A stretch of 48,551 nucleotides of DNA from a virus (IMGVR_UViG_2627853771_000003); one strand, 5' to 3'; positions 5,291 through 16,689 are shown, counted from the stretch's first letter. Numbers and translations: made by a program. Notes: generated from the sequence alone by a model not told the origin.

Positions 5291-5348
5291 AAAAAGGGCG
5301 GCAGAGCAGTCACGGAGTAAAACTGATACCGCCAAACGTCACCAGAAA
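5291..5348 (-). ncRNA. dicF: DicF-like small RNA (ftsZ-targeting sRNA of the dicB operon)
   Basis: Minus-strand sequence TTTCTGGTGACGTTTGGCGGTATCAGTTTTACTCCGTGACTGCTCTGCCGCCCTTTTT, with a GGCGG...CCGCC stem followed by a U-run; sits between the ydfC-like and dicB genes with no protein-coding capacity. Confidence 0.6.
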
Positions 5349-8877: not shown

Positions 8878-9303
8878 GTGGCAAAAGTTTTTACACAAGA
8901 AGAGCGGGAAAAAATTAAAGGGCAGGTTGTTGAACTCGTACGCCAGAGTGGGCGCGAGACGTTACGACAACTGGAAACTAAAACTGGGGCAACAAGATAT
9001 CTGATGAGTGTTCTGGCCAGAGAGCTGGTTGCCAGTGGCGATGTATACAACTCTGGTTACGGGTTATTCCCGTCTGAACAGGCGCGTAAGGACTGGCAAA
9101 ATGCCCGTAAAAAGCTCTCAAGGGCAAAGCTGAAGAAACCATCTGCGGTTGATCCGGACCTTATCTGGTCATTACCTGACGGAGAAATACGTCGCTACGA
9201 TAGTTGTCTAAACATAATCTGTCGCGAGTGCCGGAAGAGCGAAGTTATGCAGCGCATTCTGGCATTTTATCAGGGAAATGTTAGGTATTTTAGACGTTAC
9301 TAG
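8878..9303 (+). CDS. hypothetical protein, probable winged-helix DNA-binding domain
   Basis: 141 aa, GTG start with SD AGGAGGA; follows the O-like gene where a helicase loader would be expected but is too small and unlike DnaC/P. Confidence 0.5.
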   Translation: MAKVFTQEEREKIKGQVVELVRQSGRETLRQLETKTGATRYLMSVLARELVASGDVYNSGYGLFPSEQARKDWQNARKKLSRAKLKKPSAVDPDLIWSLPDGEIRRYDSCLNIICRECRKSEVMQRILAFYQGNVRYFRRY

Positions 9304-9530
9304 ATTAAAGGGCATTAGTTCAGATATGCATTGACATTTTCATGGCACAAGGTAGAGCTAGCGTGGTTGTTCGCTTTGTGCCAAGAGTGGTCATTGATAA
9401 TATTTTGGTGGGTTACATCTGTCAATGTTTCAGGTGATATGATATACAAATAGCCAGACTTAGACTGGCATGCTGTTTATTTTTATATTATGGGTGTGCC
9501 ACATGGATTTAAAACTTATTGAGATATGAC

Positions 9531-10556
9531 ATGGATACTTTTCATAATATTTTGCTTGAGCACATAGACAGCCTTTTAAAAGAGAGACTTGATTTATCTG
9601 GTGACGCTGATATCGAAAAAGAAATTAATAACCTAATTCCCAAAATAGCCATTGTCGTTAAAAAATCTCTTATTGGCTCGGCCAATGCAATGCTTAGAGA
9701 ACATCGTTCTCTTTGTGATGAATTTGTTGAGAGAAATATTTCAAGATGGGCAGAGGCTTTTGATTTGCTCGAAACACTTATAGTGATATGCACGGAGTCC
9801 GGTGAAGAGTTCAATCGTTCTTATAGACCACAAGCTGCCTCTGAAGAGGATGTGGTTTTTGATTTAGTCGTTCGGCATCACGCAAGAGCTTGCCACATCG
9901 CCAACGAAATTTTGTGTCTCTTAAAGAATGGATTTGCAGATGCTGCCCAAGCGAGATGGCGAGCACTTCATGAGGTAGCGGCCACAGCTATGTTTATAGC
10001 AAAGCATGGAAAAGAGTGTGCTGAGCGCTTTTACTACCATGAAGTGGTTGATTCATATACTGGAATGTTGGAACACAAAAAGTACGAGCACCGGTTAGAA
10101 GCAAAAGGTCCAACTATTGAAGAAATAGCTGAGTGTAAAGTTCAATTTGATCTATTAATAAAAAAATATGGCAAAAAATATGCAGATAATTATGGCTGGG
10201 CATCTTATATTTTCCCTAACCATAATAAAGTGGGGTTTGGAGCTATTGAGAAAGATGTTCAGTTAGAACACATGCGCCCTTATTATAAGTGGGCGAGTCA
10301 GAATGTACACACCGGTTCCAAGGCAATGAGAAATAGGCTTGGTCTCTGTGAAACTGGTGATGATATATTATTGGTCGGGCAAAGTGATTCAGGAATGGCT
10401 GAACCAGCCCATGCTACTGCTATTAGTTTGATGCAGATTACTGTGACACTTTTATTTTTAAAACCAACCATTGATCATGCCGTCATTTCAAAAATAATAC
10501 AGGATTATTCTGATGAGATTGGAAATGTATTTCTTAAAATTGATAAGGGTAATTAA
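9531..10556 (+). CDS. orphan protein of unknown function in an AT-rich island (candidate accessory/defence gene)
   Basis: 341 aa from the first ATG (the track ORF begins at a TTG at 9519). AT-rich coding sequence flanked by AT-rich non-coding DNA; no family recognised; contains RHHARACH (R-x6-H). Confidence 0.6.
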   Translation: MDTFHNILLEHIDSLLKERLDLSGDADIEKEINNLIPKIAIVVKKSLIGSANAMLREHRSLCDEFVERNISRWAEAFDLLETLIVICTESGEEFNRSYRPQAASEEDVVFDLVVRHHARACHIANEILCLLKNGFADAAQARWRALHEVAATAMFIAKHGKECAERFYYHEVVDSYTGMLEHKKYEHRLEAKGPTIEEIAECKVQFDLLIKKYGKKYADNYGWASYIFPNHNKVGFGAIEKDVQLEHMRPYYKWASQNVHTGSKAMRNRLGLCETGDDILLVGQSDSGMAEPAHATAISLMQITVTLLFLKPTIDHAVISKIIQDYSDEIGNVFLKIDKGN

Positions 10557-10842
10557 AAATTGGAAAAGTGATAGTATATTCTTGTTTTTTTTACTGGTAA
10601 TTAAATGTTTTTAAAGTTACTAGTTCACACCTATCGAACGTCCGGTCTTCGCCCAAAGCGGACTAGAAGGTTAGCTTGCGTCGGACTTGGCGTATTTAAA
10701 GAAGTGCTGGTGGTGACTGGTTGTTGTGTTCCATTTCTACAGAACAAAATCACAGAAACTATACCCAATAGTTATATTGAATCAATGATGAGACAGCCTC
10801 ATATTTATCAGGACTGGTGTACGTCCAATACAGGAGGTTGTC

Positions 10843-10932
10843 GTGCTGGTTCTCAAATGTGCGCTAGCTATTGCGGCTGTAATGGCAATTTATTGTCTTG
10901 CTGTTGTTCTTACGGATCGCCTTTCTGATTGA
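10843..10932 (+). CDS. candidate small hydrophobic peptide (29 aa), type I toxin-like
   Basis: GTG start 5 nt after AGGAGG; product MLVLKCALAIAAVMAIYCLAVVLTDRLSD (single TM helix plus charged tail). Not in the track (under 60 aa); overlaps the implausible 107-aa track ORF in another frame. Confidence 0.35.
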   Translation: MLVLKCALAIAAVMAIYCLAVVLTDRLSD

Positions 10933-11143
10933 TTTTATATTGGCGAGGTGACGGGAGTTAAGTAGAATTGCTGCGGGTGCTTGAGGCTATCTGCCTCAGG
11001 CATGAACACCAAAGGCAGATAGAGAAAAGCCCCAGTTAACATTACGCGTCCTGCAAGACGTTTAACATTAATCTGAGGCTCAATCTATGAACGGCAAATC
11101 TAGGTTAGCCTCTTGCGTGCCGAAAGGCAAGGAGAAGCAGGCT

Positions 11144-11299
11144 ATGAAGCAGCAAAAGGCGATGTTAATCGCCCTGATCGTCATCTGTTTAACCGTCATA
11201 GTGACGGCACTGGTAACGAGGAAAGACCTCTGCGAGGTACGAATCCGAACCGGCCAGACGGAGGTCGCTGTCTTCACAGCTTACGAACCTGAGGAGTAA
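11144..11299 (+). CDS. hokD: Hok/Gef-family type I toxin (HokD/RelF-like)
   Basis: 51-aa product MKQQKAMLIALIVICLTVIVTALVTRKDLCEVRIRTGQTEVAVFTAYEPEE; an in-frame upstream ATG at 11087 gives a mok-like extension; terminator follows. Confidence 0.85.
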   Translation: MKQQKAMLIALIVICLTVIVTALVTRKDLCEVRIRTGQTEVAVFTAYEPEE

Positions 11300-13345: not shown

Positions 13346-13870
13346 TTATTGTTTAACCCATAATAGTTCATTGACATTGAATCCCAACTTTTGAGCGGTA
13401 CGCACATAGTCTGCTTTTACATTATCTGGAATAGTTTGGGTCCTTGCCAGAATCCATAGGTATTCTCTGTTCGGACCACTGACAAGAGCATACTTATACT
13501 CATCATCCAGTTTGATTACATTATAGCCACCATAGAAGGGGCCAAAAAACGAAACTTTCAACGCTGCAGTTTTAGTATCTCCAGTAAAGTATGCTTTACC
13601 TTCGCTCTCGCTCCATTTGTTTTTCGTTGGATCGTATCCACGGTTAAGTACGCGAATCCCTCCGTCGTTCCGTTTTTCATAAGTAGCGCTGACCTGTTCC
13701 AGACCACGTTCGAACCAGTTCTCGAGGCGAGCTATTTCATACCATTTTCCGAGGTAGCGGTTGGCGTCAAAATTTGTAATCGGCTGCACACCTTTAGGTG
13801 GTGTCGGGGCCTTACATGCTATAAGAGTGAAAGAGAGTGCAATGCCAGTCAACACAGGCCATAACTTCAT
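13346..13870 (-). CDS. Blc-like bacterial lipocalin, outer-membrane lipoprotein (moron)
   Basis: Signal peptide with lipobox LIAC; lipocalin motifs YLGKWYEIARLENWFERG and SFFGPFYGGYNVI; opposite strand to the phage late genes. Confidence 0.85.
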   Translation of the reverse strand: MKLWPVLTGIALSFTLIACKAPTPPKGVQPITNFDANRYLGKWYEIARLENWFERGLEQVSATYEKRNDGGIRVLNRGYDPTKNKWSESEGKAYFTGDTKTAALKVSFFGPFYGGYNVIKLDDEYKYALVSGPNREYLWILARTQTIPDNVKADYVRTAQKLGFNVNELLWVKQ

Positions 13871-14909: not shown

Positions 14910-15776
14910 CTAAGCGAGGTTCTTGTTTTCAAATTGTTCCGGACTGAGGCCGCCACACCAACTGTGCCGCCGCCACCGATTGTAATCACATTCGATATAA
15001 TTAAACACCGTTGCCCGCATTATTTCCCGGCTGATAAAGTGTTCTCCATGGATACATTCCACTTTCAGCGAATGAAAGAAGCTTTCCACGCAGGCATTAT
15101 CGTAGCAGCAACCTTTTGCGCTCATACTTCCACGCAGATTATGCCGCTTCAGTTGCGCCTGATAATCTGCTGAACAGTACTGGCCTCCACGGTCCGTGTG
15201 AACGATAACGTTCCGGGGCCTCTTACGCCGCCACAGCGCCATCTGCAGGGCATCGCAGGCCAGTTGCGCCGTCATGCGTGGCGACATTGACCAGCCAATA
15301 ACGGCACGTGACCACAGGTCAATGACCACTGCCAGATACAGCCAGCCTTCATCTGTACGTAAGTACGTGATGTCTCCTGCCCACTTCTGGTTCGGGCCAC
15401 TGGCGTAAAAATCCTGCTCCAACAGATTTTCTGACACAGGCAGGCCGTGTGCGCGGTAGCTGACCGGGCTGAACTTCCGGGAGGCCTTTGCCCTCAGCCC
15501 CTGACGGCGCAGGCTTGCCGCCACGGTTTTTACGTTAAAGGGGTAACCCTGAGCACGCAGTTCATCCGTCAGGCGTGGGGCACCGTAACGCTGTTTTGAC
15601 CGGGTAAAAGCCGCGAGGACAACGCTGTCGCAGTGTTGGCGGAACTGCTGACGCGTGCTTATCCTTGTCCGCCGCTGACACCACGTATACCAGCCGCTGC
15701 GGGCCACCCGGAGCACGCGGCACATTGCTTTGATGCTGAACTCAGCCTGATGTTTTTCAATAAAGACATACTTCAT
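14910..15776 (-). CDS. insF: IS3 transposase OrfB (InsF)
   Basis: 288-aa DDE integrase-core ORF inside IS3. Confidence 0.9.
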
Positions 15777-16081
15777 TTCAGGCGCTTCGCGAAGTATGTC
15801 GCGGCCTTTTGGAGGATAGCCAGCTCTTCATCCCGTTCTGCCAGCTGGCGTTTGAGACGTGCAATCTCGGTAGACATCTCCAGTTCACGTTCAGAAGACG
15901 TCTGCTGATTTTGCTGTTTACTGCGCCAGTTGTAGAGTTGTGATTCATACAGGCTGAGTTCACGGGCTGCGGCAGTAACACCGATGCGTTCAGCAAGCTT
16001 CAGGGCTTCACTGCGAAATTCAGGCGAATGCTGTTTACGGGGTTTTTTACTGGTTGATACTGTTTTTGTCATGTGAGTCAC
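15773..16081 (-). CDS. insE: IS3 OrfA (InsE), HTH/leucine-zipper protein
   Basis: 102-aa ORF overlapping orfB by 4 nt. Confidence 0.85.
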
Positions 16082-16137
16082 CTCTGACTGAGAGTTTACT
16101 CACTTAGCCGCGTGTCCACTATTGCTGGGTAAGATCA

Positions 16138-16283
16138 ACTATCGCTTTGGCACATTGCCTCTTCTTGCGCCGTTGACTCTGCTGAAGCATTATCTGGGTG
16201 AGTATCCTAATGATTACTTGCTTACACAGAATTACTTCGATCCCTATCCGGAAGAACTGGCTCTAAGACTGATGGTGAATTAA
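16138..16283 (+). pseudogene. 3' fragment of the DUF523/DUF1722 gene displaced by IS3
   Basis: In-frame continuation ...YRFGTLPLLAPLTLLKHYLGEYPNDYLLTQNYFDPYPEELALRLMVN* once IS3 is removed. Confidence 0.6.
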
Positions 16284-16689
16284 CTGTATGCGATATCATC
16301 TGAAAGTGATGAGTTCCTGTATGCAGGATATTTACAATCGTAAAAACTACGCTATGATGCTCATAGTGTCAGTTTTTATAAAAATCCTGTTCACGCTAAA
16401 GAAAACATTGAGATGCAATTTAATGTTGGTAAACATACCAGCCCCAAAAGATTTTATTCAATCTGTTTTTATATGAAGATATTTCAAGTGAATATAAAGA
16501 GCATATAATATTATTATTGCACGCAGCTATTATAATATAACAGATTAGTTTAATGATTTGTTTTTTGTGAGTTAAACACATGGTTTTATAGTTGTGATGC
16601 AATGAGATTTTCCTTATTGTTGAACTGGCGAATATTGATTTTCCACCTATACTTACCTGGTGTAACCCCAATGATATCAGGTGGATAAT

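Follow-up and report, generated by a model that had tools for sequence, protein, structure and literature searches.

Which function is served by the single gene found within positions 9304..10842 of the viral DNA stretch IMGVR_UViG_2627853771_000003 (48,551 nucleotides (nt), the whole of which is here called the window)? A previous sequence-only reading had seen there a gene that is dispensable to the phage life cycle and might serve in defence, and had regarded its product of 341 amino acids (aa) as an orphan to which no family could be assigned. Our analysis placed the protein in the family DUF5677 and the gene in a horizontally acquired, low-GC, single-gene cargo cassette (9397..10636). In our tentative view, the protein most likely acts against phages on its own, as a prophage-borne factor that works by abortive infection or exclusion; confidence in any particular mechanism is much lower than confidence in defence as such. 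The coordinates of the features are collected in Table 1.

Family assignment and cassette limits

The single open reading frame (ORF) proved to be real and intact, as had been claimed. The open frame spans 9519..10556 on the plus strand, and its first ATG yields the 341-aa product. Since all homologues (339-343 aa) open with the same N-terminal MDT or MET, this ATG was taken as the start. Residues 112-274 matched the Pfam family DUF5677 (PF18928) with 118 bits (E 5.9e-34, gathering cut-off 27.1), the PHROG 27456 profile covered residues 1-341 of 341 (E 6.2e-210), and the RefSeq annotation already names the DUF5677 family. No match was obtained in an NCBIfam scan of the 341-aa protein. The label of an orphan was therefore wrong. 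The term 'undescribed' holds for the function and fails for the family, which is catalogued; no study reporting a function was found in the literature on DUF5677.

In total, 547 close homologues were found, and a profile search returned 3,564 clusters at 50% identity. Members are known from bacteria and archaea, including haloarchaea, and also from a few plasmids. Close full-length relatives with 58-89% identity occur in Salmonella, Pectobacterium, Providencia, Serratia, Klebsiella, Enterobacter, Vibrio, Colwellia, Sulfurovum, Nitrospiraceae, and Desulfuromonas; the copies of Enterobacteria, Nitrospira, Desulfuromonas, and Fusobacteria share 58-65% identity. Residue conservation was counted over 117 diverse relatives, all of which also matched PF18928.

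Homology with prophages that hold other cargo stops at 9383-9396 and restarts at 10637-10649. Because the flanking homology breaks there, the inserted unit is about 9397..10636 (~1.24 kb). The GC content is 0.369 for this cassette, 0.382 for the region 9304..10842, 0.384 for the ORF, and 0.305 at third codon positions, compared to 0.499 for the whole window and 0.517 for the replication genes just upstream. Among the 1240-bp windows of the stretch, the cassette falls in the lowest 3.6% of GC. These values confirmed the AT-rich island described earlier. The AT-rich flanks were borne out in part: 9397..9530 and 10557..10636 belong to the cassette, whereas 9304..~9390 and ~10637..10975 are conserved flank, the former being common to prophages with other cargo. 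A copy from the equivalent slot of a lambdoid prophage in Klebsiella showed 77% DNA identity across 9412..10544; since the identity extends to 9412, about 120 bp upstream of the ATG move with the gene. The cassette is carried by 72 of 5,426 complete E. coli genomes, with the ORF 99-100% identical, and the right flank by ~1,600.

The moron concept for lambdoid phages comes from Hendrix and colleagues. Like a moron, the DUF5677 gene is an addition flanked by conserved genes, deviates in GC, brings an upstream region of its own, and is patchily distributed among closely related prophages. It differs in that promoter and terminator are predicted ones and expression in the lysogen is putative. A 9/12 promoter-like site and a weak upstream hairpin were the only such signals found. 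The former is a candidate sigma-70 promoter as judged by consensus, and the latter, weakly terminator-like in its sequence, could insulate the cassette from the replication operon. A terminator scan 3' of the DUF5677 stop codon revealed no intrinsic terminator.

Two further observations concern this upstream region. The sequence TGGCATGCTGT upstream of the gene does not qualify as a sigma-54 promoter, as the -12 element is absent and the GG is lost in Klebsiella. The best sigma-70 match of the region (TTGACA-17-TATTAT, 11/12) is a minus-strand site where the cassette begins on the left (9425..9397) and faces the DUF977 and replication genes, where antisense transcription would be possible.

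Over this stretch the window is identical to E. coli PCN061, whose genome carries the element next to rspB as a defective Qin-like prophage. The defects of this prophage are a frameshifted integrase, IS3 and IS66 insertions, and a truncated terminase gene. The host of the cassette is apparently this defective Qin-like lambdoid prophage. A gene in such surroundings might itself be a decaying or non-functional remnant. Against this, the ORF is full length, nearly identical in all 72 carrier genomes, and part of a family whose residues are strongly conserved across domains of life; by these conservation data, the remnant reading is effectively refuted.

Cargo of the slot and contexts of the family

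The gene order of replisome organiser, DUF977, DUF5677 ORF, hok/sok, DUF968, and Q confirmed the location between the replication genes and hok. The parallel drawn earlier with the relBE genes of Qin-type prophages was correct as well: in the Qin prophage of K-12, relB-relE lie immediately upstream of hokD. DUF977 also borders other cargo in UTI89, 2013C-4991, B2.3, E32, P276M, and 2020S05-013-31.

The slot was compared among 13 other E. coli genomes, namely 12 that share the hok-upstream block plus K-12 with its Qin prophage. At least 11 alternative cargos were found. They include a type I cyclic-oligonucleotide-based antiphage signalling system (CBASS; cyclase and two-transmembrane (2TM) effector, PADLOC-confirmed), AbiH with an unknown gene, an AIPR protein, a HEPN-annotated solo protein of 310 aa, a YobI P-loop NTPase, an SMEK protein with a methyltransferase, relBE in K-12, and elsewhere several unannotated proteins of 320-484 aa as well as two degraded versions. 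CBASS type I, AbiH, AIPR, the YobI NTPase, the HEPN-annotated protein, and RelBE share the flanks of the DUF5677 cassette and are mutually exclusive with it; they belong to unrelated protein families, and the DUF5677 protein matched none of their models. The DUF977-to-hok slot is thus a hotspot for defence and accessory cargo. Because its cargo behaves in this way, the slot provides the strongest argument for an accessory or defensive role.

The unannotated slot proteins (320, 333, 484, 326, and 378 aa) are encoded in UTI89 (L015 1399-3378), O55:H7 DEC5A (L041 290-1744), AR434 (L014 2299-3279), and P276M (L054 537-1673). Neither the two UTI89 proteins nor the one from AR434 matched a PADLOC model; Pfam matches stayed below threshold for the UTI89 pair and were absent for AR434 and DEC5A. 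These proteins are candidates for further defence genes.

The contexts of other family members were examined in 22 genome loci. No neighbour family was shared across taxa, and the neighbours differed among E. coli, Klebsiella, Enterobacter, Photobacterium, Providencia, and Serratia. The 22 loci thus showed no antitoxin gene conserved beside DUF5677, as would mark a type II toxin-antitoxin system. Because there is no conserved neighbour, DUF5677 is regarded as a solo gene that acts alone or with host factors.

The carriers are mostly mobile elements. The gene was found at the cargo end of P4-like or phage-inducible chromosomal island (PICI)-like satellites in Enterobacter, Lelliottia, and Serratia, in a Providencia integrase island together with a 545-aa deaminase and a 2,147-aa NACHT protein, in the neighbourhood of an IntI-like integrase in Colwellia, and in SPbeta-like prophages of Bacillus, close to AimR/AimP and the yop accessory region. 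A fusion of an NTPase with DUF5677 adjoins SNF2 and DUF1156 genes of the type known from the defence island system associated with restriction-modification (DISARM). Within 5 kb of the gene, 20 genome loci yielded type I and type IIG restriction-modification (R-M), Mrr-STAND, PD-Lambda-1, AbiV, CAP12-type TIR, HipA, and several PADLOC candidate systems. The link with defence genes is real but not uniform. Together with the slot cargo, these mobile and defence contexts support the earlier proposal of an accessory, possibly defensive gene.

Two of these carriers showed additional features. In Colwellia sp. Bg11-28 (L050 5167-8029), the DUF5677 gene lies two genes from a divergent 319-aa tyrosine recombinase of integron-integrase size, and a small ORF separates the two; DUF5677 may here form an integron cassette. 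In the Enterobacter and Lelliottia satellites, the DUF5677 gene is followed after ~170 bp by a gene for a 777-779-aa protein, whose sole recognised feature is a C-terminal SEC-C zinc motif, which also yields weak matches to PADLOC models of the CBASS E2 type. The gene may belong to the cargo as a further defence gene or may be a partner confined to this lineage.

One alternative is a factor that benefits the phage or satellite itself, through anti-defence, helper interference, or modulation of the lysis-lysogeny decision. The gene is oriented like the early-right operon, and the hairpin upstream of it is weak, so that expression by lytic read-through is possible; carriage by satellites and the position near AimR/AimP and the yop region in SPbeta-like prophages also fit. 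However, many copies are chromosomal and lack phage or satellite genes, or lie in or beside R-M operons, and the family is nearly absent from sequenced phage genomes. Moreover, proteins with an anti-defence role usually are small, evolve fast, and lack conservation between phyla. We consider this alternative improbable.

Fold, conserved residues and the case for defence

An AlphaFold2 model of the protein (predicted local distance difference test (pLDDT) 85, predicted template modelling score (pTM) 0.77) was wholly helical, a set of four long helices preceding a smaller portion that is helical as well. Foldseek searches against the PDB and viral models gave nothing at E<=0.001 and only generic helical-bundle matches. 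Sequence and profile searches of the PDB gave nothing either, matches to spastin-MIT and chalcone synthase at E >=0.18 being chance. A Pfam scan for weak matches in the 117 relatives found DUF5677 alone, apart from Ist1; a relation to Ist1, suggested by six weak matches among the 117 members (best E 0.0064), was rejected as helical-hairpin noise. Of the checks proposed in the sequence-only reading, structure prediction with fold comparison thus gave an all-alpha model and no specific relative, and the profile searches gave the Pfam match and none to the PADLOC models.

Some members carry N-terminal extensions, none with a Pfam match and two with transmembrane-like hydrophobic segments by eye. 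One member is the above fusion, beside SNF2 and DUF1156 genes, with a P-loop NTPase; such fusions are too few to support a conclusion.

Conservation within the family peaks in the motif R142-W-R144-A-L-H147-E148. R144, H147, and E148 were found in all 117 relatives, and R142 and W143 in 116 each. The motif R142-W-R144-x-L-H147-E148 is a candidate functional centre with a putative catalytic role. Other invariant or near-invariant residues are W73, E126, L130, G134, G222-W223, E240, R249-P250-x-Y252, H260, and G283-x-S285-x-x-G288.

The string RHHARACH had been flagged as an R-x6-H clue of the kind seen in HEPN-type RNases. It is present at residues 115-122, but it is not conserved: R115 occurs in 87, H117 in 103, and H122 in 6 of the 117 relatives, R115 and H122 occur jointly in 4, and position 122 is Q or L in 100. 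A separate R142-x4-H147 pair is kept in 116, in a context (R-W-R-x-L-H-E) that is atypical for HEPN. Neither the protein nor its relatives matched a HEPN family or structure, and hhalign found no relation to the HEPN-annotated protein from the same slot. A HEPN-type RNase toxin with an R-x(4-6)-H active site would be in keeping with the presence of RHHARACH, with the near-invariant R142-x4-H147 near the start of a long helix and after an invariant Gly, with the all-alpha bundle, and with the solo HEPN defence proteins that do occupy such slots. In view of the unconserved RHHARACH pair and the missing HEPN matches, we judge it very improbable.

HepS is a solo HEPN abortive-infection protein of Salmonella Gifsy-1. 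Its gene had been selected for study on account of a comparable position, and the study showed that abortive infection can be achieved in full by one protein encoded in such a slot (PMC13043305). The likeness lies in a single partnerless gene in a slot between the replication and late-regulatory regions of a lambdoid prophage, in a mostly helical product, and in a protein predicted to be harmless until triggered. That the DUF5677 protein is itself a HepS was ruled out by length, motif position, and the lack of a match.

By analogy with HepS, a solo sensor-effector logic may be proposed. A soluble, all-alpha protein of 341 aa would work without a partner gene and would remain harmless until an incoming phage triggers its activity. 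It would act through a site that comprises the helix with R142/W143/R144/H147/E148 together with H260 and the G283-x-S-x-x-G288 loop; RNA or a nucleotide as the target is only a guess. Apart from slot and contexts, a defence function is suggested by the strong constraint on the protein, with 58-89% identity across phyla and invariant R144, H147, E148, W223, and H260. In addition, DUF5677 was reported to be enriched in serine-recombinase-marked defence contigs of Bacillota (bioRxiv 10.1101/2025.10.07.681051).

Several results weigh against defence. Its support comes from context and not from experiment. The only published test of a family member concerned a DUF5677 ORF of Enterococcus or lactic-acid-bacterium source, which was challenged with six phages of E. 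faecalis; protection came from five ORFs of that study, and this one was not one of them (bioRxiv 10.1101/2025.10.07.681051). The ORF from this RADS screen belongs to the same Pfam family and had been picked for enrichment in defence-associated contigs; unlike the protein studied here, it is a distant Bacillota member in E. faecalis with a serine-recombinase context. None of the 5,027 defence protein models of PADLOC-DB v2.0.0 was matched at E<=1, and homologues occurred in 1 of 50,697 sequenced phage records. About one third of the contexts are plain chromosome or housekeeping surroundings (recBD, ribonucleotide reductase, transport genes), among them the Photobacterium and P0062 loci. The slot also holds NUDIX and HAD hydrolases with no obvious defence role. 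As hok loci were not enriched near known defence systems in the hok-loci survey (12% compared to 9.4% expected), the evidence is the cargo of the slot and not hok. Furthermore, structure, sequence, and profile comparisons linked neither fold nor family to any chemistry, and residues 257-282 (window ~10299..10376) formed the only segment modelled at pLDDT <50. This segment, which contains H260, L270, and L272 and directly precedes G283/S285/G288, ranks with the best-conserved regions of the family; judging from the model, it may order only upon oligomerisation or ligand binding.

Some of these results would also fit a lysogenic-conversion or fitness moron unrelated to defence, that is, an all-alpha protein with an enzymatic or binding activity of use to the host (for instance in stress tolerance, small-molecule metabolism, or regulation), whose gene rides in the cargo slots of mobile elements. 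The contexts without nearby defence genes, the two hydrolases in the same slot, and the negative Enterococcus test are in line with it, as is a conservation that is very high for a defence gene (58-65% identity across distant phyla). On the other hand, there is no conserved metabolic neighbour or operon, the distribution in E. coli is patchy, and the gene recurs in satellites, prophages, and integrase islands and beside R-M, STAND, and DISARM-like genes. A fitness role of this kind appears rather unlikely to us.

The anti-phage reading may extend beyond this locus. DUF5677 would then be a new and widespread family of single-protein anti-phage immunity, all-alpha, with no solved or annotated relative and with a new functional centre, and would travel as a solo cassette in prophages, P4/PICI-like satellites, integron-like arrays, and defence islands. 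We regard this wider view as possible but doubtful. If the protein does protect against phage, a new one-gene immune family of unknown chemistry would be present in many phyla and in ~1% of the complete genomes of E. coli, and the DUF977-to-hok slot of Qin/Rac-like prophages would be a compact hunting ground for further systems, as several of its cargos lack annotation. If the protein is not protective, it would still rank high in conservation among the uncharacterised proteins that mobile elements of enterobacteria encode. Its invariant residues are clear targets for mutation.

The hok-side block and further features of the prophage

A regulatory RNA had been suspected in the ~290 bp downstream of the gene. 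This suggestion found no support: the stretch 10557..10842 (286 nt) gave no Rfam match, and its folding z-scores (-0.84 and -0.33) were no better than those of shuffled sequences. Most of this stretch, from 10637 on, belongs to the block upstream of hok, which is present in 1,604 of the 5,426 complete E. coli genomes at 86-100% identity regardless of cargo and is unannotated.

Table 1. Features of the DUF5677 locus. Positions refer to the window, except those given with an L-numbered locus.
Feature	Position	Strand	Basis and remarks
DUF5677 CDS	9531..10556	+	341 aa; ORF list, Pfam, PHROG, RefSeq WP_047928742.1 in E. coli PCN061
Low-GC, moron-like cargo cassette	9397..10636	+	DUF5677 gene with ~134 bp upstream and ~80 bp downstream; breakpoints, GC
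R142-W-R144-A-L-H147-E148 motif codons	9954..9974	+	most conserved motif of the family; candidate functional centre
RHHARACH codons (residues 115-122)	9873..9896	+	string flagged in the sequence-only reading
Candidate sigma-70 promoter TAGACT-17-TATATT	9461..9489	+	consensus scan, 9/12; TAGACT kept in Klebsiella copy
Short hairpin GCCAGACTTAGACTGGC	9453..9469	+	terminator scan; weak T-tract; partly kept in Klebsiella
DUF977 (ren-like) gene	8878..9303	+	left landmark of the slot; Pfam DUF977, E 9e-29
Conserved hok-upstream block	10637..10975	+	right landmark of the slot, outside the cassette; genome survey, 9-copy alignment
29-codon hydrophobic ORF MLVLKCALAIAAVMAIYCLAVVLTDRLSD	10843..10932	+	GTG start; AGGAGG at 10833-10838; inside the conserved block
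hok/sok module	10975..11299	+	sok 10975..11149 (Rfam RF01794, 109.6 bits); hokD 11144..11299
777-779-aa protein gene of satellites	L002 9200-11533; L004, L005 9194-11533; L031 11194-13533
DicF small RNA	5296..5347	-	Rfam, 76.7 bits
Lipocalin (Blc-like) gene	13346..13870	-	directly after the Q antiterminator gene
cspA-type thermoregulator leader	19920..20317	+	Rfam, 109 bits; upstream of cspI in PCN061

The 29-codon ORF within the block adjoins the hok promoter on its upstream side and is unannotated. It was intact in 9 of 9 divergent E. coli copies, with all indels of the block outside the ORF, and is present but unannotated in the phages Tritos, Evi, and mEp460. It could encode a small protein of the membrane or, beside hok, another toxin of a type I-like kind. 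The neighbouring hokD is annotated in PCN061 and 55989.

Typical Qin features elsewhere in the window are DicF and the cspA-type leader. The lipocalin gene is another moron-like insertion, with the same layout in J3 and P276M. In 1240-bp windows, further low-GC stretches were observed at ~15680..18060 (minimum 0.32) and ~19180..22000 (minimum 0.35). Both lie downstream of Q and the lipocalin gene, in the IS3-interrupted YbgA/DUF1722 region and the lysis/csp region, and may be acquired cargo.
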